Assembly: GCA_030622955.1 (NCBI GenBank)
Contig: JAUXFM010000002.1
Location: 1-60,964, forward strand
DNA from: Lentisphaerales bacterium
GTDB lineage: Bacteria > Verrucomicrobiota > Kiritimatiellia > JAUXFM01
Length of the DNA stretch: 60,964 nucleotides
Reading direction: 5' to 3'
Part shown: positions 41,347 through 60,721 of the stretch, piece by piece
How positions within the stretch are numbered: position 1 is the first letter of the stretch
Layout of the letters: each line of letters starts with the position of its first letter
Notes under the pieces: model-generated
What the model was told of the DNA's origin: nothing
Database searches by the model: none
Seen by the model: only the letters and a program-made list of their open reading frames with translations
Translations under genes and position numbers: made by a program

Positions 41347-41808
41347 GATCTTTCCCCCTCCCCCACATTAATTTTGCACTATACAGCTTCGCACGGGATA
41401 TAGCAACAATTTGCGCGCATTACTGATAGGACCCGATTATTCGTGCCGGGTACAACTCCACAATCTGTCGGCGACAATACAGAACGCTGACTATGCGAAG
41501 TCTTCAGGTGCAGGAATGGGCAAGATTATCGTACGGTACGGGGTGTATATGCAGCAAGCAAGAGCAGTCTTCTTCAAGCTGGGCAAAGATTTTAATCGTT
41601 GACTGGCTGTCGCACCAAACAGTTTGGGTCATCTTTTGCCAAGATGTGGGCAACGTGCTGTTAAGCGGTAATTCAGGGACCCACATTCCTCGCGATAGAA
41701 ATCAGGAAACAGCAGCCGGACGGGCGAACCTCGCATCGCACTTGCGTCTTTACACGCTGCCATGATCATCGCATCTCCTCGCTTTTCTTAATCAAAGAGA
41801 AGAAGGCA

Positions 41809-41826
41809 CGAAACCTGACAGTTTCG
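41809..41826 (-). terminator. weak hairpin CGAAAC-N6-GTTTCG directly after the 977-aa gene stop, followed by a T/C-rich tract
   Basis: Read directly. The stem is only 6 bp and the tail TGCCTTCTTCTCTTTG is not a clean U-run. Confidence 0.3.
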
Positions 41827-41827
41827 C

Positions 41828-44761
41828 CTACGGTTTCAGCCGATACTTCAATCCCTCGATCTTCTTCCCCTCTGTTGACATTATATTGGCGCCGAATTTC
41901 CAACCGCCGTGAGTCACGGATATCTTCACCAGTATTTTGTTCGCGCCCTTCTTCAGCTTGAAGGACTTCACATGATCGTTAATGCGGTAGCCACGCTCTT
42001 TCTCATGAAGCTCACCGATGCGCTTGTCGTTGACCCATATGACGAACCCGTCTTCAGATCCAATCCCAAACTTGGCATTCATATCCTTTGGCGCGTCAAC
42101 CCAGGTAACAGCATAGGCCGCAACGTTCTCCGGCCAGCCGTATAGTTTATTGAAATCAACGACACAATCGTCTCTGAACGCTAGCATGCTCTTTATATCC
42201 TGCAGAACCCACTTAACGTCCTTCTCCCCTCTTCCCTTGTAAGTGTTCGCAAGATCGATAGGCTCATTCTCAATCACATGCGCCACATCAACCTCTGCTC
42301 CGCCCTGATTATGGAAGGGGCCAATGACCATCCACTTGTTAACGGCTGTGCCTATCCACTGTTTCTGCTTGACCACAACCTTGGAAGGATACTTCCTTTC
42401 GATAACACGGCCACTGAAGATCCAGTAATCCCCGATCGAGCTCAACTCGACTGCAAACGTGCCATTCATGGAATCGATATTAACGTTGCCCGTTCTCTTC
42501 GCAAGAGAGGCCCCGCTCTGGTACATTATGGAACTGCCCCTGATAAACTTGACAGGTCCACCCGGCCCGATCTCAACAGGCATGCTCAAGCCTTCTCTCG
42601 TGCCCAGGTCCATGAACGCGTATGCCACGCAGGGCTTGTTGCCCGGTTGCCAGATCTTGCCCAAATCCACGGTTGTACCCATGGGAATTGTGAGCACTTC
42701 CACTGCCTGCCTGGTTCCATCTGCGCCTTTGAACAATCCTGCCACTGAATTGATTTTCGGCAGTTGCCTCGCCCAGGAGGGCCGTTCTTCCTTATTCTTA
42801 TCGGCCTGGAACTGCCCTCCGCCTTTGACGAACGGGCCGACTATCGTCCACTGTCCGGCCTTGACGGTCCTAGGCGCTGTAGGATCTCTGCCTTGCGCTT
42901 CCGACGCATATCCCTGCGCAGTTAGGGCGATCGCTTTCGCCTCTTCCGTACGGCCGAGCCCCCTGAGCACAAGCGATCGATACATGTAGTAATGGGCATT
43001 GCCAAAATATGCATGCTGCGTACCTTGCACCGTCCTGTTCATATCCTTCAGGGCTTTCCCCCACTCGCCCTGCTGTACATACGCATGCGCCCGCAGGTGA
43101 TAGATTGGCTTGGAGTTCTCGCCAAATCTGATCGCCATGCTCAGCAGTTCAGAACCAACAGCGAACTCCTTCCTTTCAATGGCATCATATGCCACATCAA
43201 AGGTAATTCTGCCAAGAACAGCGCGCAGATTTTCAAACACTCCATGTTCTCCCTGCCCAAACCTCGGCAGGCTGTGTATGACAGTGCCATCTTCCGCAAG
43301 TATCAGGATATGGGTCGAATTCCCGCGGATACCATGTTCATCCTGCAGTTTCGCATATTGCCCCGAACTGATGCTCGCCATCGGCCCGGATATATCTTCC
43401 TGCTTGAGCAATTCCTTAAGATTGTCAACTTCTGCAAAGAGCGCAATCGTTTCCATATTCGACTGGTATTGCTTGAACTCCCGCCTGTGCTTCCTCAGCA
43501 GGCCCAATCTCTCGCGCTTCTGTTCCGGGTCCTCCGGCAATTTTGTCACAAAAACAAGAGTCAGCCTCTTCGTCAACGATGCCGGAAACTCCCTGCTCCC
43601 ACCATCCGGCAGCATCTTGAATTTCCCTTTGAACACCCGCCCCGTATCTGGTGTAAAACCGAGGAACCTGTAGGCTCTGCGCACCCTGATATCCACGGCA
43701 CTTTCATTCGAAAGCCCATGGGTCAGTCCAGCTTCACCGCAGCCAGCGGCCAGCACCACAGCACCAGCTTTCGCCAACTCTGCCGTTTCCCTGTCGGCAA
43801 ACCGCTGCGCCAACCAGAGAACAGCAGTCCTGTTCGCCATCCTGTCCGCGGAACCTCTCACCTTTTCCCTGAGCTCCGCGAATGCCTTCTTCAACTCATC
43901 CGGCGCATCGCCGAGAAAGGCGCCAGAGATGAGGTGTTTCGCACCATCAATGTCGTTTGCAACTCCGCGCATTGGCCCGGCCGCACGCAGGCGATAATCC
44001 GCAATCGCTCCGTTCGGTCTGATAATAATGAAGCAGGGCAACTTCGTTGAACCGTAGATCCTGTAAGCGGGGTCATCACGTCCCTTATCGGCAAAGGTGT
44101 GCGTCCAGTCCAATCTATTGGCATCAATGAACGCCTGTGCCGCTTCTCTTGAGCCGTCCAGGTTGATGCCGATAATCTTGAATCCATCATCCTGCAGCGA
44201 AGCTAACTCCTTGTTCAGCTCAGCAATGCCGTCCTTGATCGCAGGCGCATCAGACGCCCAGAATACAACAATCGCTTTTTGCCCGAGCAGATCCATCGGC
44301 ATTCTGATCTTAGCGCCATCGCCGGTCGTCAAGATCGCATTGAAGCCCTGTTCACGATGCATAAACACACCCAGCTCATCGTGGAGAAACATCAGAACAC
44401 CGGGTTGATCGCCATATCCGGCAATGAGCTTGTTCCTCGCGGACGCCAGGTATTGATATGCCCCCAAGCCACCTGCCCTGTTTCGCAATCGAAGACCATG
44501 CATCAAGCTCTCCGCCGCATGCTCCGTATTGGCATACCTGGCAGCAAACATGTTCAATAAATCGTCCTGCTTCTTGCTCGGATCACGCTTCTTACCGATC
44601 GTCTCTTGCCTGATCTTCTCAAAAGAGGCCGTGGTCTGATCGCGATCAATCTCAAAATCGGTTCTTGCCATACATAAACCGGACAGGCTCAGCGACAACC
44701 CGATTACAGTCAGGGCGAACCACCGAACTGCCAGCTTGTTGTTATGACTTAAACGAATCAT
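41828..44761 (-). CDS. secreted 977-aa multidomain protein: two Cys-less TlpA/thioredoxin-like modules, TPR-like helices, two C-terminal beta-sandwich-like modules
   Basis: Signal peptide. AIVVFWASDAPAIKDG...FKIIGINLDGSREAAQAFI...KLPCFIIIRPNGAI has a TlpA-like layout without CxxC. QWTIVGPF and KWMVIGPF each start a repeated C-terminal module. ATGA overlap with the upstream gene. Confidence 0.75.
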   Translation of the reverse strand: MIRLSHNNKLAVRWFALTVIGLSLSLSGLCMARTDFEIDRDQTTASFEKIRQETIGKKRDPSKKQDDLLNMFAARYANTEHAAESLMHGLRLRNRAGGLGAYQYLASARNKLIAGYGDQPGVLMFLHDELGVFMHREQGFNAILTTGDGAKIRMPMDLLGQKAIVVFWASDAPAIKDGIAELNKELASLQDDGFKIIGINLDGSREAAQAFIDANRLDWTHTFADKGRDDPAYRIYGSTKLPCFIIIRPNGAIADYRLRAAGPMRGVANDIDGAKHLISGAFLGDAPDELKKAFAELREKVRGSADRMANRTAVLWLAQRFADRETAELAKAGAVVLAAGCGEAGLTHGLSNESAVDIRVRRAYRFLGFTPDTGRVFKGKFKMLPDGGSREFPASLTKRLTLVFVTKLPEDPEQKRERLGLLRKHRREFKQYQSNMETIALFAEVDNLKELLKQEDISGPMASISSGQYAKLQDEHGIRGNSTHILILAEDGTVIHSLPRFGQGEHGVFENLRAVLGRITFDVAYDAIERKEFAVGSELLSMAIRFGENSKPIYHLRAHAYVQQGEWGKALKDMNRTVQGTQHAYFGNAHYYMYRSLVLRGLGRTEEAKAIALTAQGYASEAQGRDPTAPRTVKAGQWTIVGPFVKGGGQFQADKNKEERPSWARQLPKINSVAGLFKGADGTRQAVEVLTIPMGTTVDLGKIWQPGNKPCVAYAFMDLGTREGLSMPVEIGPGGPVKFIRGSSIMYQSGASLAKRTGNVNIDSMNGTFAVELSSIGDYWIFSGRVIERKYPSKVVVKQKQWIGTAVNKWMVIGPFHNQGGAEVDVAHVIENEPIDLANTYKGRGEKDVKWVLQDIKSMLAFRDDCVVDFNKLYGWPENVAAYAVTWVDAPKDMNAKFGIGSEDGFVIWVNDKRIGELHEKERGYRINDHVKSFKLKKGANKILVKISVTHGGWKFGANIMSTEGKKIEGLKYRLKP

Positions 44762-47700
44762 TCTTTCGGCCTCAAAGCATGCTTCAATGCGCCGTCCTTG
44801 TTATCAAGAGTGAGCTGCAGGGAAAATGCCCCTGCCAGATTGGCACATTTCAGCAGGATTTCGTTCCAGCCCTCTTTCAGCTCTAAATCGAAGTTCGAGC
44901 TGGATGATTTCGCCACGAACTTGCCGTTGACGTACATCTTTCCATAATCGTCCACTCTGAAGAGTGTTTTGCAGATGCGCGCATCAGGCGAATAGACATA
45001 AGAGACGGCAAAAACAAGGACATTGCGTCGGCGCCAGTGATCCCACATGTTGACGCATCCAGCATGATCCGCTTGGATAACACACCAGGAAGGCCAGCTT
45101 CCCCTGTAAACAAATGGCCGGTCCAGGTCCACCTTCTTCTCAAGCGCAGTCACCTCATCGAAACTCTTCCACTGGGCATTCTTCGATTTCTCTTTCATGT
45201 CGCTCTGGCCAAGCGGATAAACTCCGATCATATTCCATTTCGGGATCGTGTTCGCGCGGATCTGCTCTGTCTTTTCGTAATCCTTCTCGAATATCTCGGC
45301 CTGTTTTCTGGTGGCCGCAGCTTTGGCGCTCTGCCCAAGCGCGTCCAATGCCTCTGCCTTGTTCATCAACATCGGGTAGTGACCGGCTCCGAGCTTGGCC
45401 TTGTCGAGCACCTTATCAATATCTTGCAGAGCCCCCTGCCAATTCTTCAGCTTCACACGAGCCTCGGAACGCATGCCATGTATGAGCCGTGCTTCGATTC
45501 GCCAGTTCAGCTTACACTTGAGCAATTCAGAGAAGAGCCTGTCAGCACCTGCATAGTCGCCCCCATCAAGCGCTTTCTCGCCTTCTGTCCGATAGTACGC
45601 CTTCATCATTGCATCGAACGCAGCATGAAGATCGGGCGCACGGCCGAATCCAGAAGCATCGTGCCAGTTCGAAGGTGGCCTCAGATCGCGCACAATAAGC
45701 CCATCCCTGCTCACTAGCATCGAATAGACACTCGGCCACCATTTACCCCATGGTGAAAATTTCTGCGCAGCCTCATCCGCAAAACCGTCGCCACTAAATG
45801 CCACTTCGCAAGTAATGTCTCCACTGTCTACAAGCCTCTGCACCTGCTCACGAGATTCGCAAAGCATGACGAAGATCATCTCGGCATCATCACTATACTG
45901 TTCGTGCAACTTGCTAATAGACCAGATAGTCGCAAGAAAGCTTCCCATGGCTCGATCATAGTTACCGGAACGCCCCGGAGTACGCTTTGGCGGTGTCACA
46001 AAACACACAACTCCGAACTTGCCATTCAAGTCTTCAGGTAACTTCAGAGTCGTGCCATCCAGCCGAGTCAGCTCCAAGTCAAGCGGACGACCTTCATCAG
46101 GCCTGAATCCGAAGATTCGCAACATACGACGTACACGCCAGTCATCATAGATTCTCTTGTCCTGCATGAACTTGCCGATCATTTCGTCGAACATGTCCTC
46201 TTCGCCCATGCACAAGGCAAACAACACTGCATAGGCCCTTGCAATGTCGTAGGCATCTGTATCGGCATATTTCTCTGCAAATGCCGCAATACTCTTCTTC
46301 AGATCCGCAAGATCCGACTGCTTACGTAATTTTTGTTTTGCGAGAATGATGTCGGCCAACAGCTTGGCGCCCGATGGGATGCGCGATTCAGAGATCTCTG
46401 CCGCCAGAGCGAGAGCTTCCTTCTTTTTCGCAGTGTCGCTAGTGAGGATCACAAGGCCTTCAAGTGCAGTCAAGATCCTGTTCCTAACAAGAAATGCATT
46501 CCCAGCGTTTGGATGTTTGTCCAGCATCTCACGTCCAAGAGCCAATGCAGCCTCGTAACGTGCAATCGAACTTGACATTGATTCAGTATAGCGTTCAGGC
46601 GGAATCAGAAACAGAGACTGAAGATCGTCAAGAAGATATTCCGGGATGAGTTCACCCCCGACCTTGTAGTTCTCTGACAATGATGCCTCAGGCGGATTGT
46701 TCATGTCTGTAGGCCCAAATGGTTCCGTAACTAGGCATTCTCCCGACAGCAGGAAGGTCACCATGTTTCCCCCGAGATTACGCCCCTTCAATTTATGCAA
46801 CCCCGCAATGCTATCGCTCTTAACTCGCCCGGCAGAGCCTACCAGGCAGTAGCTGGGTTGATCGGATGTACCAAAACGTGAATAGGCATCGTTCTTCCGC
46901 CCGCCTGGTGCAACGACCTGCATCCCGTTAAGCCCATGCAGGCGGCAGAAACGCTTCGCCCCCTCCACGTCTTCGTTGAGATTTATGCCGATCAATGTCA
47001 CGTCTGTGCTGTTCGGGGATTGATACAGCTTCTTTATGTCGCTGAGCTTGTGTTCCATGCTGTAGACCTTGTGGTCCCAGAAATACAGAAAGTTTTTGCG
47101 CCCCATCAGGTCCAGCGGTGCAACAAGTATCTCTCCGTCCAGTGTCCTGAACCGCCCCCTGAACAGCCGTCCGACATTAAGATAGCGCCCAAACCGATCA
47201 CGCATAAAGCCGGCAACACCCGGCACATCGCTGAAGGATTTGGACAAAACCTTGCGATAGCCTGACAGGGCACGCCCATCGTCCGCGTCAAACGCCATCA
47301 GCATCCCGCACATCAGAGCTTTCGCCTCCACTTCACGGTTTTCGATGCCTCTGTATCGCTCGACAAACTCCCTATTCAGTTTCCGTTCTTCCCGCACATT
47401 ATCCTCGTCGAGAGCGCTGAGTTTAGCATGTGTTACTACCAGATCGGCTTGAATTCGTATTGCGGGCAGCGCACTGGATGTTGCGAGTTTCTCTGCAATC
47501 TTGATGAGCACCTTGGAATGCTCATCGGATGCTTCCAGAATTGCTGTCTCCTGCGCGGAACGCATCATGACTGCCCAGAGTTCTACAATGTTTGTCGCGC
47601 CGGGGTACGTCTTTTCCAGTTCCCGGCCGGCCTGGATGATGCCCATGAAGGTCCTGACACGTTTCCGCTCGGACTGCCCGGGCGTAGCCGTGGCATATGT

Positions 47701-47871
47701 CTTGTAGAGCTTCCTGATGGCATGAATGGGAATATTGGCCGGCGCTTCAGCGGGTCCAGGTTCAGCATCCTGTGCAACTGCACCGCAGGCCAGCACAACG
47801 CAGGACACGAAAACCGAAAGATAGATTCGGGTGCGAAGATGACTAATGACTGATGACTGGTAACTACTCAC
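44758..47871 (-). CDS. secreted 1037-aa paralogue of 41828..44761 (two Cys-less thioredoxin-like modules, TPR-like region, C-terminal beta-sandwich-like module)
   Basis: KNFLYFWDHKVYSM...VTLIGINLNEDVEGAKRF and FGVVCFVTPPKRTP... are TlpA-like without CxxC. KWNMIGVYP starts the C-terminal module. GTG start at 47871, 4 nt after the upstream stop. Confidence 0.75.
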   Translation of the reverse strand: MSSYQSSVISHLRTRIYLSVFVSCVVLACGAVAQDAEPGPAEAPANIPIHAIRKLYKTYATATPGQSERKRVRTFMGIIQAGRELEKTYPGATNIVELWAVMMRSAQETAILEASDEHSKVLIKIAEKLATSSALPAIRIQADLVVTHAKLSALDEDNVREERKLNREFVERYRGIENREVEAKALMCGMLMAFDADDGRALSGYRKVLSKSFSDVPGVAGFMRDRFGRYLNVGRLFRGRFRTLDGEILVAPLDLMGRKNFLYFWDHKVYSMEHKLSDIKKLYQSPNSTDVTLIGINLNEDVEGAKRFCRLHGLNGMQVVAPGGRKNDAYSRFGTSDQPSYCLVGSAGRVKSDSIAGLHKLKGRNLGGNMVTFLLSGECLVTEPFGPTDMNNPPEASLSENYKVGGELIPEYLLDDLQSLFLIPPERYTESMSSSIARYEAALALGREMLDKHPNAGNAFLVRNRILTALEGLVILTSDTAKKKEALALAAEISESRIPSGAKLLADIILAKQKLRKQSDLADLKKSIAAFAEKYADTDAYDIARAYAVLFALCMGEEDMFDEMIGKFMQDKRIYDDWRVRRMLRIFGFRPDEGRPLDLELTRLDGTTLKLPEDLNGKFGVVCFVTPPKRTPGRSGNYDRAMGSFLATIWSISKLHEQYSDDAEMIFVMLCESREQVQRLVDSGDITCEVAFSGDGFADEAAQKFSPWGKWWPSVYSMLVSRDGLIVRDLRPPSNWHDASGFGRAPDLHAAFDAMMKAYYRTEGEKALDGGDYAGADRLFSELLKCKLNWRIEARLIHGMRSEARVKLKNWQGALQDIDKVLDKAKLGAGHYPMLMNKAEALDALGQSAKAAATRKQAEIFEKDYEKTEQIRANTIPKWNMIGVYPLGQSDMKEKSKNAQWKSFDEVTALEKKVDLDRPFVYRGSWPSWCVIQADHAGCVNMWDHWRRRNVLVFAVSYVYSPDARICKTLFRVDDYGKMYVNGKFVAKSSSSNFDLELKEGWNEILLKCANLAGAFSLQLTLDNKDGALKHALRPKE

Positions 47872-47875
47872 TGAT

Positions 47876-48868
47876 CTATTCCTGATAGATAGGAATATAC
47901 CTATAAGGAGTCCCTAACACAATGATAGCCATGCTGTGCTCGTAGCTTTTCTTGCCCATGCTGCCGTCTTTGCCCTGCTTCGCGATCAGCGCTTCGCGAA
48001 TCTTGGGATACCACTCACGGTAGTCTTTAAGCCCTGCCTGCACCATCGCCTGAATCGCGTAGTAATGCCCATAATGATAGTTGCGGGTTGCATGGAACAC
48101 AGCTACGGGCTGGTTTCTGAGATAGCGCATCCCGCCCTTGACCTGCTTCGATTCACGCTCGCCTGAGAGCATCAATGTGTAAGTGGCGCCGGCACTGCGT
48201 GGAAATTTGGGCTCCTTGCCGGAATCGAAGTAGTTGAACCCGCCCGATTCAGCTTCCCATGTTCTCTTAAGATAGCCTACAGCCCTGCTGATCGTCTTGT
48301 CCGGTACGACGATTCCGGCCTGACGCGCCGACGCAAGTGCAACAAGGATCGTGACCGTAACCGACGAATCCTGATCAACGGGTTGCGGGTCATAGCGCCA
48401 ACCTCCTCCAACGTGCTGCGCGCGAAGGATGACGCGAACACCTGCTTGAAGGGCTTTGTGCACTTCTTCATCCCTATCGGTCATGCCCCAAAGTTCTGAA
48501 AATACCAGCACCGCCAATCCATGCTCGTACATCTTGACGCCAAGGTATCCGTCACTAGATTTTTTCGCCTCCACAATGAGCCAGTTCAAAGCCTTCGTCG
48601 TGGTTTCCTTGTATTTGCCTTCACCTGGAAAATGGCCTTCCACCAGGAAAGCCATAAGCGCAAGAGATGTCTCCCCAATCTTGTAGGTGCTTCCCCAGCT
48701 ACCATTCTTGCTCTGGGTCTTTACGAGCCGCTGATACCCCTTCTCAATAGCTGCGGCCGCTTTCTCGGTAAGTTCCGGATATTCCACAGCTTCTTCGGCG
48801 AACATCACGTTACTCGTCATTGCAATCAGCATGGCCAGCGCTACGATTGTCCGGATTCCTCTTCTCAT
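47876..48868 (-). CDS. secreted prenyltransferase/squalene-cyclase-repeat (alpha-alpha toroid) protein
   Basis: Signal peptide. QW-like repeats QSKNGSWGS, QHVGGGWRY and QGKDGSMGK. GGGWRYDPQPVDQDSSVTV parallels the squalene-hopene cyclase GGW...DVDDTA segment. ATG 48868 lies 9 nt after AGGGGG; the alternative ATG is at 48877. Confidence 0.75.
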   Translation of the reverse strand: MRRGIRTIVALAMLIAMTSNVMFAEEAVEYPELTEKAAAAIEKGYQRLVKTQSKNGSWGSTYKIGETSLALMAFLVEGHFPGEGKYKETTTKALNWLIVEAKKSSDGYLGVKMYEHGLAVLVFSELWGMTDRDEEVHKALQAGVRVILRAQHVGGGWRYDPQPVDQDSSVTVTILVALASARQAGIVVPDKTISRAVGYLKRTWEAESGGFNYFDSGKEPKFPRSAGATYTLMLSGERESKQVKGGMRYLRNQPVAVFHATRNYHYGHYYAIQAMVQAGLKDYREWYPKIREALIAKQGKDGSMGKKSYEHSMAIIVLGTPYRYIPIYQE

Positions 48869-48881
48869 TGCATACATCCCC

Positions 48882-51800: not shown

Positions 51801-51920
51801 CTGCCCTCTGTCAGATCCATGCACAGGAAAGGATAAGAGGAAAGTAGTCAAAATCGCTACCTGACATAACAGGCTTCGCTGCGCCGCCTTTCTGATTTTA
51901 GAGGCAATGCTTTTTTTCAT
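48882..51920 (-). CDS. secreted 1012-aa all-helical coiled-coil protein
   Basis: Signal peptide ...LTTFLLSFPVHG. The long E/K/Q/A/L-rich sequence has no recognisable catalytic motif. There is an acidic stretch near the C-terminus and the protein ends ...LPLEYGDVLKDYYMRLAE. ATGA overlap with the upstream gene. Confidence 0.75.
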   Translation of the reverse strand: MKKSIASKIRKAAQRSLLCQVAILTTFLLSFPVHGSDRGQRARGSKASQGILLETVQQDLVIQRLAALSQQFDLLLEDSKANGSLDPRTEMRVKMYKTRVKQIENGPLASAVELLRLAFQKEGKEQLTKVNKANKYIDVAAWEMGRLLLMLNVRYATDVYARELHEIYRREEDIYSLTLDVAESIIEMDRDEFRQLSGRQRDTADRLIQMSKDARQPRPSARRYLAQVRLLRASKALREQEMFLSDAARDVGEKKAKAAVVKQGLALKGVEEVQVKLNPEFQMILLEILRDDIRAIIDAQQAMRKTGLDLEGDQIGIMAHQRGLLRKTSRLRVPMKIKDKTFQLSGSEERQQAAQEEEGREQQQAMGSGIDYALQEAASAMKRAVAAVKAMDKATLEKEQKEAATNLASAVEIITDRITALVIVDNVTRMRNLAAERQRSIKYFDNMQLDIQDQIDELMAGQLSDEVVLLVQADAVNELMGFMDRLDDSQTYVPLLKRDLNRALEKMRVTVTSIQGKKLKDAIMHCEKASEAIQRAFKTAEYETIALGKRVEMRTGIMTLANFRMHAYDVEAEQRDVMRSTKNASEDLTSLVEQEEILSFATDEAGQLAAVVGMDTKIMLPLMQAQQLMTSASEKIEKNDMPGAVPMQNKAEALLRQSQIMSKMRSEQYEIIAELLELLQRIQADTLDVLQRQRLLHEENDKSAPGKLPGLVDRQEELRMETIAITKVVPEQLGRESHQTASGEMGLSSGSLKAKSSEEAGRHMKLAEDALEAALARIEAVVLITSELAAELVDMEIPVEIQALMRAFELAGRQRAIRQETMASTHPEDITDLRLHQEDLEKDTVKASQEFSIYDAFGKAAAEMQAAIVQLKGFKPKPGIKHQRKAEQILMELVMELVAEMESEEEEDILEEQEEMLEVAMSLSLTLEFSPTEELPPMDAMSLMMMPPSDVELEDEMEQTKEAVEGRDPRRRRSDWRIIARRERAALNENFARELPLEYGDVLKDYYMRLAE

Positions 51921-53557: not shown

Positions 53558-53686
53558 CTTGTTCTAACGGACGACCGCTGTCTCCACCTATCTATTTTTC
53601 AATCCTTCTTCCCTGAACTCTGCCTACCCGCCTCACCCTAGCTCGCCATCGGGCCGGCCAGGTAAACCTGAACACTGAAACCGCTC

Positions 53687-56401
53687 CTATGCCAGATCAT
53701 TCTTCCTTCGCAGGAACCATTCGAGGCATACCAATCCTATGAAAGCCAGGAGCACCCACCATTTATCCCACAGCAAGCTTTCTTTAACTACTGAAACTGT
53801 TCTCGGTTCGCCATCGATAATCTCCGGCAGCACGGGCAGATCAGCGATCGCGAAATAGGTGCCACCCGAAGCCAGGGCCAGCTTCCTGAGCCCGTCTTCA
53901 TCAAGTTGTGTCGAAGTCATCTCGCGACGAATCGTACTCACGTGGAATTCCGGCACATTCGCAAACGACAGATCAGCCTCACCCACTGTCAGCTTGTAAG
54001 CCCCTTCACTCTCTGCCGTGTAGTAGCCCTGATAGAGGCCAGCCTTGCCCGGTTCAGGTTTCAGATGCAAAAGCAGGCCGTCATCCTCTTCCTCGCCTTT
54101 GTCATTCACTTTCTTCACATAAAGCGAGTAGTCGGCAGCCACAACAGGTTCGTAGGCTTCATTGAGCACATTGGCATAGATATGAACGCGCTCGCCCGCC
54201 CGGTATATTGTACGGTCGGTCTGGATACGTATGCGCTGATGCTCGCCCAGCAATCGTGAAAGGGTCAGAAACTGGATCGTCTGCGACCACAGTCGCCAGT
54301 GATACTTGTCACCACTCTTGTAGCGTAGTCGCCAAAGTCGATCGGTGCCAATGAACATGGTCTTTCCACTGCCATATCGGTGCCAGGCGATCAAAGGATA
54401 ATTCTTAACACGTCGCCTCGCGTCCGACAGGTATGCCAATGCCACAGCCCCCGGCTTCAGCTCTGTAACCGGCGGCAGCCTGACCAATGGCTTCACACGC
54501 GTCCAGATCATGTTGTTCTTCTCCGCAGGCGATTCCAGGGTCATGACCATACTTCGCTTGCCTGCCATTGACAGCACTGGGTGCACAGATTCGGGCACTT
54601 CATCCCACTTCCCACTGGCGTCGAACCTGACCGGCAACATATCCTCGACCGGCGTGCCTGCATATTCGAATGGCGTATGGTCACGTCCAGCCAGCATCAG
54701 GAGCGAGCCACCGCGATCCCGAACAAGTTCCTGCATCCGCATGAACTCTTCTTCCTCGAAGAAGGAGGCCGCGACATCGCCCAGAATGACCAGGTCATAA
54801 GCGTAAGCATCTTCTTTTTCGCTGGGATAACGGGCGATGTATTCCTGCGAAACCCGCGCTATTTCTGCGCCCACCTTGGTGCTGATGAATTTCACGTTCA
54901 AGCGCGGATCACGCTTGAGAATCGAACGCAGGTATCTGTATTCCCAGCGCGAATCGCCTTCTATGCAGAGCACGTCAACTTTGTTAGTCATCATCCTGAT
55001 GGTACGCTGGATTCTGTTGTTCTCAACGGTCGCCTCGTTAGGCAACGGCTCAAGCGCAATTTCTAACTTCGCCGCCCCACCCCTGGGGCTGTAAGCATCA
55101 AAGAAAATGTCCTCGAACTGAGGGCCGCCCTTGAGCTTCACTGGTGTACGCGCGAGTTGGCGGCCGTCCAGCGATACCTTGAGATTCGTATTGCGCTTCT
55201 CGTATCCATCAGAGTGGATCTGAACACGTACCGGTACCTGGTCGCCCGAGAAGGCAACATCCTGCACCACTATGTTGTGAATGGAAGCGTCATCGGGTTT
55301 CGCCAGGCCGATGCCGACGGGGTAGATGGGAATCGCTCGCTGCCCCATCTTGTTGCCGATCTCGTCAACACTTGCGCCACCATTCGCAGAACCGTCGGTA
55401 AACACAACTACACCTGCAACCAGAGAACCGCCATGAAGGCCAATGGCCTCTTCAATCGCGGAACCAAGGTAAGTAGCTTTCTTGGTTACCTCGAGCTTAT
55501 CAAGCGCAGCATCCGGTAATGCACCCAATCCTTCAGCCACCGATTCCGTGCACTCGTCAAACCGACAATACTTGATCTCGTAGTCGCCTTCGAGTTGCCC
55601 GATGAAATTGCGCTCCTCGCTGCCAAGGATTGATTTCACAAGCTCCATCCGGGACATTTGGGAAAGGCGGTCCTCTGCTTTATCGTTGAGAGTCTTGCTG
55701 TATGACGGACCCTGAATGTCTACCGCGGCAAGGGTTTCCTTCAGCTCATCCTGTTTGTCCGCAATCTCTCTCTGTCGTGCCGCATCTACTGCGACCGCTT
55801 CTGTTTCACGGAACAATCGGTCCTGCTTCCCTTTCAATTCCTCGAGCGTGCCAATAATCTTCATGACCCTGGAATCGGCTACGCCGACAGCACGAACGGC
55901 CGCCAGAGCATCTTCTAAAGCCTCCGCCGCTTTCCGCTGCGCAGGTACCGCAGGGGCGACTTTGCCGGCTTTGAGCGCCCGGACAGCTTTCATCATGTGC
56001 CGTTCCGCGCGAGCCACGAGCCGCCGAACTTCGACATGCTCATATTTGATTTCACCGGTGGCCAGCGCTGCTTCTATCAAATCTTCATGTGCCTTGCGCG
56101 TGTCGCGAATGCCCATACTTTCCGAAACGTCGACCATCACTATCAAGCGCTTCGATACCGGCATTTCTTCACCTGTACGGATGCTGGGCTCCAGCAATAC
56201 GAGAATCAGAAGCATCATGGAAAGAATGCGGAGAATCCCAAGCATTGGCCGCATCTGTTTTTGCAGCTCCGATTCGCCCCGGTAGAGCCAGATCGAGACA
56301 CCGACAGCAGCTACGATGAAAAGCCCCACGAGCAACACCGGCCACTGCTGGTTCAAATGTAACTCGCCCAGCAACATCATTCCTGTTAATCCGCCAATCA
56401 T
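53687..56401 (-). CDS. double-TM VWA-fold protein (904 aa) with long helical insertion and GATase1-like C-terminal module
   Basis: MIDAS DVSES in LIVMVDVSESM. The Thr and Asp elements (KKATYLGSAI, VVVFTDGSANGG) follow only ~215 aa later. VDVLCIEGDSRWEY...YDLVILGDV...GGSLLMLAG resembles class-I amidotransferase-like modules. There is a C-terminal TM. Confidence 0.75.
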   Translation of the reverse strand: MIGGLTGMMLLGELHLNQQWPVLLVGLFIVAAVGVSIWLYRGESELQKQMRPMLGILRILSMMLLILVLLEPSIRTGEEMPVSKRLIVMVDVSESMGIRDTRKAHEDLIEAALATGEIKYEHVEVRRLVARAERHMMKAVRALKAGKVAPAVPAQRKAAEALEDALAAVRAVGVADSRVMKIIGTLEELKGKQDRLFRETEAVAVDAARQREIADKQDELKETLAAVDIQGPSYSKTLNDKAEDRLSQMSRMELVKSILGSEERNFIGQLEGDYEIKYCRFDECTESVAEGLGALPDAALDKLEVTKKATYLGSAIEEAIGLHGGSLVAGVVVFTDGSANGGASVDEIGNKMGQRAIPIYPVGIGLAKPDDASIHNIVVQDVAFSGDQVPVRVQIHSDGYEKRNTNLKVSLDGRQLARTPVKLKGGPQFEDIFFDAYSPRGGAAKLEIALEPLPNEATVENNRIQRTIRMMTNKVDVLCIEGDSRWEYRYLRSILKRDPRLNVKFISTKVGAEIARVSQEYIARYPSEKEDAYAYDLVILGDVAASFFEEEEFMRMQELVRDRGGSLLMLAGRDHTPFEYAGTPVEDMLPVRFDASGKWDEVPESVHPVLSMAGKRSMVMTLESPAEKNNMIWTRVKPLVRLPPVTELKPGAVALAYLSDARRRVKNYPLIAWHRYGSGKTMFIGTDRLWRLRYKSGDKYHWRLWSQTIQFLTLSRLLGEHQRIRIQTDRTIYRAGERVHIYANVLNEAYEPVVAADYSLYVKKVNDKGEEEDDGLLLHLKPEPGKAGLYQGYYTAESEGAYKLTVGEADLSFANVPEFHVSTIRREMTSTQLDEDGLRKLALASGGTYFAIADLPVLPEIIDGEPRTVSVVKESLLWDKWWVLLAFIGLVCLEWFLRRKNDLA

Positions 56402-56423
56402 TTTCTCTCCAGCCGTCTATTCT

Positions 56424-58580
56424 TCAATTTTCTTTCCCTCTTCCCCTGGTCCGCCTGCGTGCATACCATGCTTCCGCTGTCAGGCCCAGGAGACCCAGAA
56501 GGAGGAACATTCGCCACAACTCCCGCCCAACTCGAGCTTCGGTAATCGCCGCAAGGATTCCATCCTTGTTTGCAATCATCTTGACCGGGATGTTTTCAAA
56601 CACTTTCTTGAACGCACCTCTGTCCAATCCTGTCAGATCGGATTCCGCGGTGTTCACGTTCGCTGCCATGCTGACCCCTGGTGATGTGGGACTGTATCTC
56701 ACCTTGTAGAAGCCGGCCTTTTCGAGATTCTTCAGCTCGGCAACAACCTGGCCCTGTCGCTCGCTTGCCTTGACCGGGGGCATCGGTTTGCCATCAGGAT
56801 CTTCAACTGAGACTTCGCCGCCGATAAGCTGACCCGTCAGAGGAAGAATAACCGGTTCGCCCACTGCCAGCGGCACCTCGTAGTCGCGCCTTGTCAGGTG
56901 CGTTATGGATTGCTGGACCAATATCGGGTACATCGGATTAATAACCATGTTGTTCCATTGACGGTTTGCCGACGTTGTGAAGAGCAGCACTTTACCACGA
57001 CCCAGGTTCTGTTCAAGCAACACCGGATATCCCTTACCTGCGACCGACAGTATGGTGCGGCCTTTCGGACTGGGCTCAGTCTCAACGACGTTCTCGAAGA
57101 ATACTTCGCCAAGTAGATCGGGCGGCAGCGAACTCAATGCCCTTGCGAGTGGATGATCAGGCATCTCGGGATCCAGATGCATGGGTGCGGTATCTTCACC
57201 CAGCAGCCGCGTTGTTACGCCCAAAAGCTTTCCAGGCAACAAGCTTGAACGACCACGACTCATACGCTCGTTCATCAGATCCGGATCCGTATTCTCACCG
57301 AGAAACATAACCAGGCCGCCACCATCCTGAACAAAATCGTAGAATCCCGACGCCATTTCCCTGGTGATTTCCGGCACATTAGCAAGGAACACTACATCAT
57401 AATCCGAAAGTTGTTCTGAAGGCAGGCCAAGCCATGGGATGACCTTCAAATTTATGCCTGCGGCTACGTCACCGCTTGTTCTCGCCTGGATCGCACGTAC
57501 CAGGTAATCGGTCGCGCCCTTGAAAGCCTCTATTGAAGGAGAGCCATCTACACAGAGCACCGACGTGCTTTCCCTGACATCCGCCACAACGTGCTTCTCG
57601 TTATCGATCAACAGTTCGTCATGATCCAACTTAGCCGTAAGACGCATAATCCCCGCTTCGTTGAGTGGCGCAAAAAGCGGAACCGTAACGCTGGCGCCGG
57701 CTGGTATCGTATCGATCAAGCGCTCATCAACAGGTGTTGCGTTCACTTCAAGCGAGATCCTGACACCCTTGCGATCGGAACGACCGAAGTTATGAACCGT
57801 CGCAGCATAGCGAACGATTGAACCGCGTCGTAGACTACCGGAGACCAATTCAAATCGCGTCAGGCCCAAATTCTCACTGTTCCCATTGCGGATGGGAACG
57901 AGGAAGATCTTCGCCAGATCCGAAAGATCGTGGAATTCCTGGCCTGTGGCGTCGGTAATGTACTGCCAGTCTTTTGCCTGCGCGTCTGTTATAATGTAAA
58001 GCTCACGACCGGGACTCTTCAATTCTTCACAAAGCTGCTTGAGCTCGCCGATACATGCTTCAACATTCAAACCTTCCGACAATGGCTCGAGATCACCAAG
58101 TATTTTCTCAACGCGTGCTTCATTGTAACCGGCGTTGCGGAGAAGCGTCCTGTTGCGGTTACCCATAAGGACCAGGGAAAGAGGCTGGCCCGGTTTCAGC
58201 GACTTAATGATCTGCCTGGTCGCCATAAGTGCTTCATCAAAACGGGAATTTGCGCCTGGCTTGTGCAGTTGACTGTATGAAGCGTCGAGGGCAATAACCA
58301 CGCCTGCAGTCTTCTCCCCAAGCGCCCATCCCCCGCTTTCGGGCATGAGCGTTGGTCGTGAAAGAGCCAGGACAATGAACAAAATGATCATACATCTCAG
58401 AATCATCAGCAAAATATCGCGAAGCTTGATTTGTTTGGCGCGAACCCTGAACGCCCGGCGGAGCAGCAGCATCGCGCCCCAGTCGGTTGTCTTGACTCTG
58501 AGCCTGTTGAGCAGATGGATAAGGATCGGCAATCCAACCCCCAAAAGGCCGAATAGTAACCATGGGTTTAGAAAAGACAT
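56424..58580 (-). CDS. BatA-N (N-terminal double-TM) VWA protein with GATase1-like module
   Basis: MSFLNPWLLFGLLGVGLPILIHLLNR is the aerotolerance-regulator N-terminal motif. MIDAS DASYS. VLCVDGSP...YDVVFLANV...GGGLVMFLG. There is a C-terminal TM. Confidence 0.85.
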   Translation of the reverse strand: MSFLNPWLLFGLLGVGLPILIHLLNRLRVKTTDWGAMLLLRRAFRVRAKQIKLRDILLMILRCMIILFIVLALSRPTLMPESGGWALGEKTAGVVIALDASYSQLHKPGANSRFDEALMATRQIIKSLKPGQPLSLVLMGNRNRTLLRNAGYNEARVEKILGDLEPLSEGLNVEACIGELKQLCEELKSPGRELYIITDAQAKDWQYITDATGQEFHDLSDLAKIFLVPIRNGNSENLGLTRFELVSGSLRRGSIVRYAATVHNFGRSDRKGVRISLEVNATPVDERLIDTIPAGASVTVPLFAPLNEAGIMRLTAKLDHDELLIDNEKHVVADVRESTSVLCVDGSPSIEAFKGATDYLVRAIQARTSGDVAAGINLKVIPWLGLPSEQLSDYDVVFLANVPEITREMASGFYDFVQDGGGLVMFLGENTDPDLMNERMSRGRSSLLPGKLLGVTTRLLGEDTAPMHLDPEMPDHPLARALSSLPPDLLGEVFFENVVETEPSPKGRTILSVAGKGYPVLLEQNLGRGKVLLFTTSANRQWNNMVINPMYPILVQQSITHLTRRDYEVPLAVGEPVILPLTGQLIGGEVSVEDPDGKPMPPVKASERQGQVVAELKNLEKAGFYKVRYSPTSPGVSMAANVNTAESDLTGLDRGAFKKVFENIPVKMIANKDGILAAITEARVGRELWRMFLLLGLLGLTAEAWYARRRTRGRGKEN

Positions 58581-58688
58581 TAAATCTCTCTCGTCTCGCT
58601 CTACGTCATTCTAGTTAACAAATCCTGAATCCGAATGTACCAATACTCTAAACTCGCCAAAATTCCTCGCCGGTCTCAGCCCTCATCC

Positions 58689-59612
58689 CTATCCCGACGT
58701 CCCCATCCCTTTTGCTCTCATCCTTCTACGGAGATATTCAATTATTACGACGTCAACCGGTCGCGAGATATCGACGAGCACATAGTCAACCTGGCATCTC
58801 TCGCAACCTGCCGAGATAGCTGCCTGAAACTTGCGGAGTTCTTCGAGATATGCGTCCCGTATCCTCTGCGGCTGAGTTGTCAGCGGTTCCTCGTTCTCCA
58901 ATCCCTTGAATTGCCAGGTCCCTTTGAATGGAAACTTCAGCTCGTAGGGATCCATGACATGAAAGACCGTGACGTTATGTCCTTCAAAGTGAAGATGATC
59001 CAGGCCCGAGATGAGATGTTCGACATCGTCAAAGCAATCTGAAAACAGCATCACCAGGCCGCGCCGTGGTATTCGATCTGCGAAATCGTGAAGCTGCTTG
59101 CCGATGTTTGAAAGCGGCTCATCTTTAGCACGCTTCATTTCCTCGTCCATAATGCCAATTACGCCCATCGTGCTTCTTGGCGGGATATACTTGCGAAGTT
59201 CCGCGTCGAAGAACCCCATACCGACCGAATCGCGCTGCTGCACTATAAGGTACGCCATCGAAGCAGCCAGGTACTTCGTGTATTCCACCTTACTGATGTC
59301 GCCCGAGCCATACCTCATTGATGAACTCGTATCTATGAGGAAATTCGCGTCGTAGTTCGTCTCCGCCTCGTAGAGCTTGATATAATAGCGCTCAGTGCGG
59401 CCGTATACCCGCCAGTCCAGGTGACGTACAGGATCCCCGGGTACATACTGCCTGTGATGCGCGAATTCCGTACTGAACCCACGCAACGGGCTCTTGTGCA
59501 CGCCCACTCTGACGCCTTCGACAATCGTCTGGGCGATTACTTCCAGGCCGCCCAGCTTCTGCAGGGTCGCAGGGTCAAAGTATTGCAGCTGGTTTGTTTC
59601 AGTTTGAGGCAT
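58689..59612 (-). CDS. DUF58 (VWA-like) protein
   Basis: [33 protein letters not shown] and FLIDTSSSM are the classic DUF58 layout. Its start overlaps the moxR end by 14 nt. Confidence 0.9.
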
Positions 59613-60639
59613 TCTTCAGCTTTTCGTCCGACGGAATCGTTTCCATCAGTTTCGTGATGATCTTGTCCGAATCCAGCCCTTCCGATTTGGCCACAAAATT
59701 GGGAATAATTCTGTGGCGCAGGATAGGATGCGCTACCGCCTGAATATCTTCCAGTGCGACATGGAATCGACCGCGCAGAATGGCGCGCGCTTTACCTGCG
59801 AGAATCAGGTAGAGAGAAGCACGTGGTCCTGCACCCCAGCCCAACCACTTCTTAATGAAGTCCGGCGCCTCCGGCTGCGTTGGGCGTGTCGCCCTGACCA
59901 GTGCCGCGGCATAATCGAACATGTGATCCGCGACCGGGATCTTACGAACGAGTTTCTGGAGCTGAATGATGTCGTCGGCATGAAGCACTTCGTTCAGCAC
60001 AACCGTTTCCTGGCTCGTGACGCGTTTCATGATTTCGATTTCTTCATCAAGCGATGGATAGTCGACCAAGATATTGAAGAGGAACCGGTCAAGCTGCGCT
60101 TCGGGCAAAGGATAAGTACCTTCCTGTTCAATCGGATTCTGTGTGGCCAGCACGAAGAACGGCTCTTGCAGCGGGTAATCTTCACCACCAGAAGAAATTT
60201 GTCTTTCCTGCATGGCTTCCAGAAGAGCGGCTTGAGTTTTGGGCGGGGTACGATTAATTTCGTCTGCGAGCAACAGATTCGCAAAAACGGGGCCCTGCAG
60301 GAACTTAAATACACGCTGCCTGGTCTCAGGATCCTCCTGAAGCACCTCGGTTCCGGTAATGTCCGAAGGCATCAAATCCGGAGTGAACTGGATGCGCTTG
60401 AAAGAAAGCGAGAGCGCCTGCCCCAGCGAACTGATGAGCAAGGTTTTCGCGAGGCCCGGCACACCAACAAGAAGACAGTGACCCTGAGCAAAAATCGCGA
60501 TCATCATTTCATCAACGACATGGTCCATGCCGACGATGACTTTGCGAAGTTCTTTTACAATTTTGTCTCTTGCTTCCGACAGGCGCGCAACTGCCGCCTG
60601 ATCCGAACTACTGACATCGGCTTTTGTGTTGTCTGACAT
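59599..60639 (-). CDS. moxR: MoxR-family AAA+ ATPase
   Basis: Walker A GVPGLAKT, Walker [10 protein letters not shown], and [22 protein letters not shown]. An AGAGGAGA SD lies before ATG 60639. Confidence 0.93.
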
Positions 60640-60686
60640 TTCGCTATCTCCTCTTTGTTTCTATCATGCTCGCCGTTTATTTGAAG

Positions 60687-60721
60687 CGTGGATTCTATAG
60701 CATCCACGAGCAATACGTCAA
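60687..60721 (-). promoter_or_regulatory. candidate sigma70-like promoter (TTGACG-16 nt-TATAGA) with the -10 box centred in a 7-8-7 inverted repeat CGTGGAT-N8-ATCCACG
   Basis: Read directly on the minus strand: -35 at 60716-60721, -10 at 60694-60699, inverted repeat at 60687-60708, about 50-80 nt upstream of the moxR ATG. Function is not demonstrated. Confidence 0.3.

Follow-up and report, generated by a model that had tools for sequence, protein, structure and literature searches.

A conserved MoxR–DUF58–VWA operon with DUF4175 and toroid genes in Planctomycetota and Verrucomicrobiota, and the envelope complex that it may encode

What kind of system is encoded by the long run of co-directional genes, headed by a MoxR-type ATPase, that is found on a contig from a Lentisphaerales bacterium, and is it new or an elaboration of something known? 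The genes lie on the minus strand of contig JAUXFM010000002.1 (assembly GCA_030622955.1), whose positions 1 to 60,964 form the window analysed here (60,964 nucleotides in all). To our knowledge, few bacterial gene clusters that lack a mechanism are as widespread as the MoxR–DUF58–VWA operons, known as Bat operons. Twenty-five years of Bat work have yielded only inconsistent stress phenotypes. The best reading of our data is that the unit in the window is an extended variant of this known, mechanistically unsolved Bat-like class, specific to the Planctomycetes–Verrucomicrobia–Chlamydiae (PVC) group. On balance we also favour, by a modest degree, the view that its products form one envelope complex, anchored in the inner membrane, periplasmic, and driven from the cytoplasm by MoxR. 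The operon and its genes, in operon order, are as follows.

41828-60639, minus strand: nine-gene operon, long co-directional open reading frames with hardly any spacing
59599..60639, minus strand: MoxR-type AAA+ ATPase, 346 aa
58689..59612, minus strand: DUF58 VWA-like adaptor, 307 aa
56424..58580, minus strand: BatA-like membrane protein, 718 aa
53687..56401, minus strand: second membrane VWA protein, 904 aa
51917..53557, minus strand: N-terminal half of DUF4175, 546 aa
48882..51920, minus strand: C-terminal half of DUF4175, 1012 aa
47876..48877, minus strand: secreted single-domain (alpha/alpha)6-toroid protein, 333 aa
44758..47871, minus strand: secreted thioredoxin-like/TPR protein, 1037 aa
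41828..44761, minus strand: paralogue of the preceding protein, 977 aa, with two C-terminal beta-sandwich copies

Gene order in the operon and its relatives

From 5′ to 3′, moxR and the DUF58 gene overlap by 14 nt, the next three junctions are gaps of 108, 22 and 129 nt, an ATGA overlap follows, then come two gaps of 4 nt each, and the last junction is again an ATGA overlap; the operon genes are translationally coupled. Lengths and junctions given in a preliminary description of the locus agree with the open reading frame coordinates. That description spoke of ten genes; we found nine, the number in its own list, and the three longer gaps leave no space for a tenth.

The first four products belong to recognizable families. 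MoxR matches Pfam AAA_3 (3.8e-62) and AAA_lid_2 (1.9e-15) and is 72% identical to a Phycisphaeraceae orthologue (locus L003), while the second protein matches Pfam DUF58 (2.9e-39) and carries the metal-ion-dependent adhesion site (MIDAS) motif DTSSS at residue 94; a hydropathy scan gave no transmembrane segment in either. The 718-aa protein (BatA 1.4e-15, TIGR02226 1.5e-20, VWA_2 4.5e-07, CARDB 1.3e-05) consists of an N-terminal double-transmembrane hairpin, a VWA domain, a CARDB-like beta domain and a weak GATase1-like domain, with the MIDAS motif DASYS at residue 99. Its hydrophobic C-terminal tail, LWRMFLLLGLLGLTAEAWYARRR, is read as a probable transmembrane anchor, although it falls below the hydropathy threshold. 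The 904-aa protein, with weak VWA and MG2 matches, has a transmembrane hairpin (residues 22-40 and 52-70), the MIDAS motif DVSES at residue 91 and a C-terminal transmembrane segment (875-893). Its MG2-like beta domain scores 1.5e-06, below the Pfam cut-off, and its VWA matches fall in two pieces, VWA_2 at residues 86-111 and VWA at residues 300-377. An alpha-helical insert of ~190 aa (residues ~112-300) interrupts this VWA domain; it is 25% identical among relatives, against 41-56% in the flanking parts, and its match to the helical part of DUF4175 is faint and non-significant. The protein as a whole is 44-45% identical to its orthologues in all loci, and its GATase1-like region, a distant relative of the one in the 718-aa protein, has a mean identity of 56%. 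The identities first proposed for these four products are borne out by Pfam and NCBIfam, weakly for the VWA domain of the 904-aa protein, and all three MIDAS motifs are present. Sequence searches of the PDB gave no relatives for the DUF58, 718-, 904- and 546-aa proteins.

We examined gene order around two anchors, a link that the preliminary description had itself put forward for checking. The toroid-anchored set comprised the best 80 of 431 loci, with one genome per species scanned, and the BatA-anchored set the best 80 of 296 metagenome loci; in the former the nine window proteins were located by tblastn, and the counts are for the same strand and the same order. Toroid loci had flanks of 10 kb and were counted for DUF4175 when at least 5 kb was available upstream, and for thioredoxin-like genes when at least 3 kb was available downstream. 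Upstream of the toroid gene, DUF4175 was found in 52/52 loci, the 904-aa VWA protein in 45/45 and the BatA-like protein in 37/38, and DUF58 was found in every locus whose flank extends far enough. Downstream, 42 of 57 loci had a homologue of the 1037-aa protein, directly adjacent in 24. From the BatA anchor, MoxR was upstream in 41/44 loci and DUF58 in 42/44, and VWA, DUF4175 and toroid genes all followed in each of the 26 loci with at least 9 kb downstream. Even in the rearranged Phycisphaeraceae loci L003 and L007, the toroid and thioredoxin-like genes are still directly upstream of moxR. These data show that the order MoxR, DUF58, BatA-like VWA, second VWA, DUF4175, toroid is nearly invariant across Planctomycetota, Verrucomicrobiota and Lentisphaerae, and that one to three thioredoxin-like/TPR genes usually follow the toroid gene, these alone varying in copy number or presence. 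The synteny of the distal genes with the MoxR core thus holds in both anchorings. The idea of a core of four genes extended by five was overstated, however, as DUF4175 and the toroid gene are linked as rigidly as the first four genes are to one another.

The best 80 toroid loci comprise 32 from Planctomycetota (Phycisphaerae, Planctomycetaceae, Pirellulaceae/Mariniblastus and Brocadiia), 37 from Verrucomicrobiota (Akkermansiaceae, Luteolibacter, Verrucomicrobiales, Opitutales and Kiritimatiellae), 3 from Victivallales and 8 with another label or none, these last probably through errors of binning. The closest orthologues of the window operon genes are from Phycisphaerae; with the split of DUF4175 that is found there too and the match of the 1037-aa protein over its full length, they suggest that the organism is most likely a divergent representative of that class. 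The system is present in hundreds of public genomes, where it is annotated piecemeal, and is not peculiar to the window. Some genomes hold more than one copy: the Verrucomicrobia metagenome-assembled genome co234_bin56 contributes five of the 80 loci (L019, L036, L062, L067 and L080), and another such genome three. On one contig, L134 (Ga0209711_10000438), two complete operons stand head to tail. A few operon contigs carry non-PVC labels, namely L026, L033 and L039 (Anaerolineales), L042 (Alphaproteobacteria) and L064 (Halieaceae); these are most likely binning errors rather than cases of lateral transfer.

The distal proteins

The 546-aa and 1012-aa genes had been described as two separate additions to the operon. 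The 546-aa protein matches Pfam DUF4175 at 38.0 bits (cut-off 27.3) and has three transmembrane segments, with a loop at about residues 76-148, followed by a beta-rich part, whereas the 1012-aa protein by itself has no Pfam match. In most relatives DUF4175 is a single protein of 1350-1530 aa, and both window proteins are colinear with it. On the 1531-aa protein P0002, residues 17-547 are covered by the 546-aa protein (2e-95), and residues 550-688 and 1466-1531 are colinear with the 1012-aa protein; residues 47-1011 of the 1012-aa protein also align to residues 569-1484 of P0134, and other fused proteins are similar. A word-indexed search with the 1012-aa protein returned two relatives only, DUF4175 proteins of 1531 and 1352 aa that match its last 65 residues. 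An exhaustive search of 1.84 billion representatives returned 123 matches in two classes: stand-alone proteins of ~950-990 aa that align end to end, and fused proteins (1450-1520 aa) whose residues ~540-1485 are matched by the query. The hydrophobic leader of the 1012-aa protein (residues 1-45) is not present in the fused forms. Signal peptides were found in 8/8 stand-alone homologues aligning from the N-terminus and in the L004 orthologue, and in all of these the signal peptide is followed at once by the conserved 'LEAxRQD' with which the helical region begins. Since the second half and the independent stand-alone homologues alike carry signal peptides, we rejected an assembly frameshift or pseudogene as the origin of the split. 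The two genes are the result of a functional fission of one DUF4175 gene. The fission is not unique to the window but is shared with some Phycisphaerae, the same split being seen in the metagenome-assembled locus L004 (569 + 991 aa), with L004/L008 and L006 alike. As the 546-aa and 1012-aa proteins are colinear halves of DUF4175, DUF4175 belongs to the conserved core.

The AlphaFold2 model of the 1012-aa protein (pLDDT 80.6, pTM 0.72) is all-alpha, with ~28 helices of 15-65 residues, and among known structures it comes closest to vinculin, talin and alpha-catenin, proteins built as chains of bundles with four or five helices each. These matches are local only, with a global TM-score of ~0.13, so that we claim an architectural resemblance and no homology. 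The protein is thus modelled as a rod made of a chain of helical bundles, and the classical coiled coil first proposed for it is rejected. Its C-terminal motif is RERAALNENFARELPLEY..LKDYY.RLAE, and the last 52 aa of DUF4175 are 57% identical across 64 loci. DUF4175 proteins (PF13779) elsewhere, for example the alphaproteobacterial TIGR02302-type proteins, are large and membrane-anchored, with transmembrane helices at the N-terminus and a long helical region of low complexity, and are encoded after MoxR, DUF58 and double-transmembrane genes. PVC members differ from them in their distinctive conserved tail, RxRAALNENFARELPLEY, and in always being followed by a toroid gene; no match to TIGR02302 (NCBIfam) was obtained at E<0.01.

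That toroid gene is the sixth invariant component of the operon. AlphaFold2, Foldseek and synteny all contribute to its assignment: the 333-aa protein has a signal peptide and not a single cysteine, and the model (pLDDT 90.6, from a 67-sequence alignment) finds only fold-level matches in Foldseek, with TM-scores of ~0.6 at 12-16% identity (8paj, TM-score 0.64; 2sqc, E 1.3e-05). There are more than 935 homologues at ~50% identity in Phycisphaerae, Planctomycetota and Verrucomicrobia, annotated as 'prenyltransferase/squalene oxidase repeat' or 'terpene cyclase/mutase family'. The family has 53 invariant columns and many invariant aromatic residues. Its fold is common to class II terpene cyclases, prenyltransferase beta subunits and thioester domains; the window protein and its relatives differ from these in being a single secreted domain that lacks the DxDD motif, the zinc ligands and the thioester cysteine, and the family therefore fails the definition of each of the three.

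The toroid might be an active enzyme working on an envelope isoprenoid or glycan, as a class II terpene cyclase, a prenyltransferase or a glycoside-hydrolase-like protein, with the rest of the operon positioning or maturing it. Its best Foldseek neighbours, single-domain squalene-hopene-cyclase-like proteins, MstE, AprG and MmpH, agree with such a role, as does a very high conservation that includes an invariant Asp170. The DxDD motif of class II cyclases is not conserved, however. The window has DQDS ('DQDSSVT'), and among 67 homologues D170, S172 and T174 alone are invariant in this region, the family pattern being D-x-[DE/L/T]-S, so that of the motif's aspartates only the first is kept. There is no Cys/His pattern for a prenyltransferase zinc site, and the protein is one domain where squalene-hopene cyclase is a beta-gamma didomain. 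Cyclase profiles score far below their cut-offs (TIGR01787, 21.8 versus 322.7 bits; TIGR01507, 17.6 versus 431.1), and although SQHop_cyclase_C reaches 27.9 bits against 26.1 over the whole protein, no single stretch passes. Genomic context also bears on the enzymatic view. Carbohydrate esterases of the SASA (sialate O-acetylesterase-like) type recur near the operon, and at L004:14365-21074 a hopanoid-type cluster of minus-strand genes (squalene-hopene cyclase, prenyltransferase-repeat protein, polyprenyl synthase and radical SAM protein) abuts the operon end on the opposite strand. The hopanoid adjacency is seen in one locus only and is for that reason probably a coincidence. Taken together, these data make an active enzyme very unlikely.

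We consider it just as improbable that the operon encodes a periplasmic protein-processing or protease-trapping device, either as an alpha-2-macroglobulin dispersed over several proteins, with MG2-, CARDB- and TED-like modules, or as a MoxR–VWA machine for degradation or quality control. The MG2 match of the 904-aa protein and a TED_complement match in the toroid protein (0.0018) speak for it, as do Foldseek matches of the toroid to thioester domains of the complement/alpha-2-macroglobulin family (C3d, C4dg and the CD109 TED). Some toroid homologues are named 'YfaS (alpha-2-macroglobulin family)' in IMG, and in L005 the gene after the toroid has a transglutaminase core, echoing the operon of MoxR, vWA and a transglutaminase-like peptidase (PMC3495828). 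Yet both domain matches lie under the Pfam cut-offs, the Foldseek matches to terpene cyclases, AprG and a glycoside hydrolase are equally good, and the window operon encodes no protease domain. Because the toroid protein has no cysteine anywhere, a CxEQ thioester is impossible, and the alpha-2-macroglobulin-like form of the proposal was rejected on this ground. The toroid family is distinct and tightly conserved, and from its sequences it looks like a binding module.

The last two proteins both start with signal peptides and are paralogues, as first proposed, with two colinear blocks (E 4e-18 and 3e-17). The 1037-aa protein (Thioredoxin_8, 1.1e-05) is laid out as a helical region, a Cys-less TlpA/ResA-like fold, a second helical region, a second, likewise Cys-less thioredoxin-like fold, an STI1/SGT-like TPR region and a C-terminal beta-sandwich; it is 28% identical over its full length to the product of the gene after the toroid in L004 (E 9e-101). 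The 977-aa protein matches AhpC-TSA (2.5e-10) and TPR_2 (0.0014), and Thioredoxin_8 was also scored at 1.5e-09 within the pair by Pfam. A 25-member family profile compared with the PDB found TlpA/ResA/DsbE-type structures at two modules (3fw2, 3fkf and ResA; 1.6e-06 to 2e-04) and STI1/SGT/PP5-type TPRs near the C-terminus, the thioredoxin fold being in this case a sequence-profile assignment only. At the position of the first-module CxxC the window proteins read FWDHKVYSM (1037 aa) and FWASDAPAI (977 aa). Cysteine occurs there in none of ~70 aligned motifs, the family reading FWSxxTPG-like, and a CxxC pair was found in none of the second-module alignments. The loss of cysteine is ancestral to the family rather than local decay, which makes these proteins probable thioredoxin-fold binding modules and not decayed enzymes. 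The preliminary description had spoken of degenerate catalytic folds. The Cys-less modules and the DQDS sequence that it pointed to are there, but decay is not the explanation, as both states are family-wide and mark ancient non-catalytic families.

These active-site data bear directly on aerotolerance, the function with which Bat genes are usually associated, in which thioredoxin- and AhpC-like distal proteins would carry reducing power to the envelope. The core does have a BatA domain, and one distal protein matches AhpC-TSA. Two later reports (PMC8862662, PMC11834572) cite Tang et al. 1999 for the aerotolerance phenotype that defined the Bat operon of Bacteroides fragilis; deletion of batA in R. 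anatipestifer lowers survival under oxidative stress (PMC11834572), and planctomycete Bat genes are routinely annotated as providing oxygen protection (PMC8862662). However, the absence of both first-module active-site cysteines and of a second-module CxxC pair excludes thiol redox chemistry for the family, and the toroid is likewise cysteine-free. Furthermore, a Leptospira mutant without any bat genes has no oxidative-stress phenotype (PMC3557215), and in PVC organisms the name 'Bat' has been transferred by homology. An aerotolerance or oxidative-stress system is consequently unlikely here, if marginally less so than an enzymatic toroid or a protease trap.

A separate issue is whether the two thioredoxin-like/TPR genes encode subunits at all. 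They could instead be variable clients or cargo, or co-located accessories, the machine proper being the first seven open reading frames. Their homologues are absent from part of the loci and adjacent to the toroid gene in fewer than half of those counted, and copy number ranges from none to three; elsewhere their position is taken by a conserved secreted protein of ~640 aa, by SASA esterases or by a SASA–transglutaminase protein. The C-terminal beta-sandwich extension is limited to a few Phycisphaerae loci. The 977-aa protein has almost no homologues among 5.8 billion proteins in a word-indexed search, and its gene is a lineage-specific duplicate and a near-orphan. Against this, the pair in the window follows closely on the preceding genes, with a 4-nt gap and an ATGA overlap, the family adjoins the toroid gene in three phyla, and in L003 and L007 it has relocated along with the toroid gene and lies upstream of moxR. 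Tandem sets of two or three such genes are common in other genomes (among them L027, L072, L037, L071, L036, L079, L032 and L049), so that the window pair fits a general pattern. Of the alternatives considered here this one carries the most weight, although we still doubt it and hold it to be less probable than membership of the complex.

Known systems and the proposed complex

How does the operon compare with systems already described? The Bat operon consists of MoxR, DUF58, BatA/BatB, the TPR proteins BatC/BatE, and BatD. As there, MoxR comes first and DUF58 next, two membrane VWA proteins with DxSxS MIDAS motifs follow, one of them with the BatA N-terminal double-transmembrane domain, and the exported proteins at the distal end have a putative TPR region; the two have in common, too, that their biochemical function is unsolved (PMC3557215, PMC11834572). 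The VWA proteins of the PVC operons, in contrast, exceed the Bat ones two- to threefold in size and carry additional CARDB/MG2-like and GATase1-like domains as well as a transmembrane anchor at the C-terminus, and the PVC operons add the ~1500-aa DUF4175, the toroid and the Cys-less double-thioredoxin/TPR proteins. No BatD was detected among the 546-, 904-, 718- and 1012-aa proteins at E<=5, or among all nine products at E<=0.01. For Borrelia BB0173, which is BatA-like, the VWA domain has been located experimentally in the periplasm (PMC5700661).

The two-gene systems RavA–ViaA, NorQ–NorD and CbbQ–CbbO resemble the window operon in that a MoxR-class ATPase is encoded beside a VWA/MIDAS partner, which in the window is DUF58. 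The corresponding reports (PMC9976466, PMC3893208, PMC4660213) describe this partner as an adaptor to a specific client complex, and the clients named there are cytoplasmic or membrane enzymes (cNOR, respiratory complexes and Rubisco), whereas the window operon and its relatives have seven to nine genes whose remaining products are mostly periplasmic. There is a further operon, of MoxR, vWA and the transglutaminase-like peptidase YebA, for which Zhang and Aravind (2012, PMC3495828) proposed a role in degradation close to the membrane. It has the pair of MoxR and a DUF58-type vWA protein together with a membrane protein, and in L005 a transglutaminase-core protein is likewise distal. The window, however, has no transglutaminase-like domain, and the YebA domain is cytoplasmic whereas the large domains of the window proteins are predicted to be periplasmic; we therefore rejected this operon, whose architecture differs, as an already described equivalent. 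The Akkermansia loci for mucin utilization (MUL1 and MUL2) were set aside as well, since they consist of different genes. Full-text literature searches returned no description of this MoxR–VWA–DUF4175–toroid architecture, in agreement with the initial statement that none was known. For PVC taxa with MoxR or BatA they gave name-based annotation only, and for DUF4175 only the unrelated context of Acinetobacter AdvA.

Several features of the proteins are consistent with the envelope complex that we favour. A hydropathy and motif scan agreed with the earlier statement that all distal products have signal peptides or transmembrane anchors. MoxR and DUF58, without transmembrane segments, would be cytoplasmic. 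In both the 718-aa and the 904-aa protein Arg and Lys are abundant in the loop that joins the first two transmembrane helices and in the C-terminal tail, which by the positive-inside rule places the bulk of each protein in the periplasm. Both VWA proteins are accordingly predicted to be clamped in the membrane at two ends, with their MIDAS–VWA, beta-sandwich and GATase1-like domains periplasmic. The N-terminal half of DUF4175 would run from a basic N-terminus through a transmembrane hairpin, a ~70-aa cytoplasmic loop and a third transmembrane helix to a beta-rich part in the periplasm, which would continue into the rod, with ~900 aa of helical bundles and the highly conserved tail of ~50 aa at its end. 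The toroid and the thioredoxin-like/TPR/beta-sandwich proteins would be secreted, cysteine-poor, non-catalytic binding modules. Identity is highest in the C-terminal 52 aa of DUF4175 (57%), followed by the BatA_N hairpin and the GATase-like region of the 904-aa protein (56% each) and then by the toroid (~50%), as expected of interaction surfaces.

In such a complex a MoxR hexamer would use DUF58 as its VWA adaptor, by analogy with RavA–ViaA, NorQ–NorD and CbbQ–CbbO, and MoxR–DUF58 would act on the cytoplasmic loops or faces of the membrane subunits so that the complex is assembled or remodelled. The periplasmic VWA domains would hold their partners through metal-dependent MIDAS contacts, and the DUF4175 rod would project the toroid and the thioredoxin-like/TPR adaptors away from the membrane, where they would bind an envelope ligand or a client protein. 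In the lineage of the window, where the thioredoxin-like gene has been duplicated, the membrane half of DUF4175 would be inserted by its own transmembrane helices, and the rod would be exported as a protein by itself on a second signal sequence. The MoxR-driven, metal-dependent extracytoplasmic scaffold first suggested for this locus is compatible with the same anatomy.

A number of points weigh against such a complex. Co-transcription, physical interaction and localization are matters of inference, and the topology comes from a hydropathy scan and the positive-inside rule, not from a dedicated predictor. The VWA assignment of the 904-aa protein lies below Pfam thresholds. The ATPase is cytoplasmic and the domains it would serve are mainly periplasmic, so that the effect of ATP hydrolysis would have to pass through the membrane. 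Docking on the cytoplasmic loop of DUF4175 is speculation: at 32% identity among loci, the loop is not better conserved than the remainder of the protein. Thioredoxin-like genes are missing from about a quarter of the loci with enough downstream DNA and thus may be accessories rather than subunits. Leptospira with all bat genes deleted shows no phenotype (PMC3557215). Finally, the toroid and BatA anchor sets come from the same subfamily, and more distant loci, beyond the 80 of 431 and 80 of 296 taken, could break the pattern.

A bolder version, which we entertain only tentatively and consider rather unlikely, is that of a PVC-specific trans-periplasmic machine with a MoxR motor, membrane VWA subunits, a talin/vinculin-like rod and a ligand-binding tip made of the toroid and the thioredoxin-like/TPR proteins. 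Its paralogous copies would be specialized in the manner of polysaccharide-utilization loci, for example in organizing the enlarged PVC periplasm or in capturing macromolecules. Rigid synteny, multiple copies, a PVC-only distribution among the loci seen and the absence of catalytic sites are all compatible with such a machine.

Flanking signals, neighbouring genes and significance

The operon is framed by short candidate signals, and a run of repeats lies within it.

60692..60721, minus strand: sigma-70-like promoter candidate TTGACG-18 nt-TAGAAT, 10/12 consensus matches, the best in the region
60687..60708, minus strand: candidate operator read from sequence, 7-bp inverted repeat CGTGGAT-N8-ATCCACG overlapping the -10 hexamer
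47842..47873, minus strand: heptamer run NNNCAGT x5 at the junction of the toroid stop and the 1037-aa start
41808..41827, minus strand: weak hairpin beginning immediately 3′ of the final stop codon

The promoter candidate stands 52 nt 5′ of the MoxR start, and its basis is the consensus match alone; a GGAG-type ribosome-binding site is found 8 nt before the moxR ATG. The promoter and operator of the preliminary description are thus present as sequence matches, and across the region promoter-like and terminator-like sites are not enriched over shuffled sequences. The hairpin that it placed against the last stop is also there, but its folding energy (-13.8 kcal/mol, z = -0.88 against shuffles) is ordinary, no different from that of shuffled sequences, and we dropped it as an exceptional terminator. 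The end of the operon is likely to be better marked by the 481 nt of non-coding sequence that follow than by the hairpin. The next gene downstream has a promoter-like site of its own (41406..41378); it encodes an 837-aa protein with no Pfam family and no homologue in any related locus. Just past the hairpin a 47-codon open reading frame, MIMAACKDASAMRGSPVRLLFPDFYREECGSLNYRLTARCPHLGKR (41630-41770, minus strand), has a GAGGAG ribosome-binding site; it is unsupported and lies outside the region described for the operon. An Rfam search of positions 38000-60964 returned nothing at E<=1.

The heptamer run overlaps the first codons of the 1037-aa open reading frame if GTG at 47871 is its start, which leaves the true start codon of this gene uncertain. 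Runs at the junction of toroid and thioredoxin-like genes are also present in L027/L028 and L040. The pattern CAGTNNNYAGTNNNYAGT occurs three times in the window, where 0.01 occurrences are expected, and in 1.27 Mb of related loci plus the window the operon strand carries 10/10 runs and the opposite strand none. A second run in the window (38803-38820, minus strand) marks the junction of the 837-aa gene and a 304-aa gene, and further runs in relatives are at L027:5815, L028:10205, L040:4265 and 5487, L019:5144, L014:15847 and L027:14410. The runs consist of 5 or 6 repeats of NNNCAGT, often [AGT]ATCAGT, on the coding strand, mostly before or over the start of the next gene. The run in the window has no Rfam match; from its sequence and placement it may be a translation-initiation element, the site of an RNA-binding protein or a slippage-prone repeat.

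Other genes recur beside the operon in relatives. In an operon subclass from Akkermansiaceae, Pirellulaceae, Mariniblastus and others, a secreted protein of ~630-680 aa is encoded between the toroid and the thioredoxin-like genes. Planctomycetota and Verrucomicrobiota versions share 55-84% identity, and no Pfam family is assigned beyond a weak CBM_6 match (L043:11013-12971, L075:10994-12952, L078:11013-12908, L050:11793-13697, L081:11859-13760, L071:10967-12892, L084:11533-13566, L029:14103-16316); the window operon does not have it. SASA-type domains are found by or inside operons at L003:1039-1773, L005:1-968 and 11120-14260, L081:11011-11862 and L050:10795-11796, one of them fused to a transglutaminase core. 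Their recurrence hints at a link to the modification of a glycan or envelope polymer. No SASA gene was found among the window open reading frames scanned.

Elsewhere in the window, on the minus strand at 12440-20428, there are four full-length sulfatase open reading frames and one shorter sulfatase-domain frame. The sulfatase domain begins at residues 4-14 of each called frame, leaving no room for a signal peptide, so that either the starts are mis-called or the enzymes are cytoplasmic. Near this cluster are a GH43-like gene and genes for a fucose isomerase and an FGGY kinase, which together with the sulfatases suggest that the organism lives on sulfated fucose-rich glycans.

PVC envelopes are atypical and their protein architecture is poorly known. 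A phylum-spanning envelope complex, if that is what the operon encodes, would be a useful entry point to them. The PVC version of the Bat-like class is informative because it is larger, rigid in its order and often present in several copies, and its extra parts, namely the 1500-aa helical-bundle rod, the conserved toroid and the Cys-less thioredoxin/TPR proteins, are handles for pull-downs, structure prediction and cryo-electron tomography. The 'oxygen tolerance' and 'terpene cyclase' labels that these PVC genes now carry are not supported by their active sites. The value of the present analysis lies in the recognition of one unit across public genomes rather than in new sequence. In conclusion, the operon is a clean and testable 'conserved unknown' of the PVC envelope.

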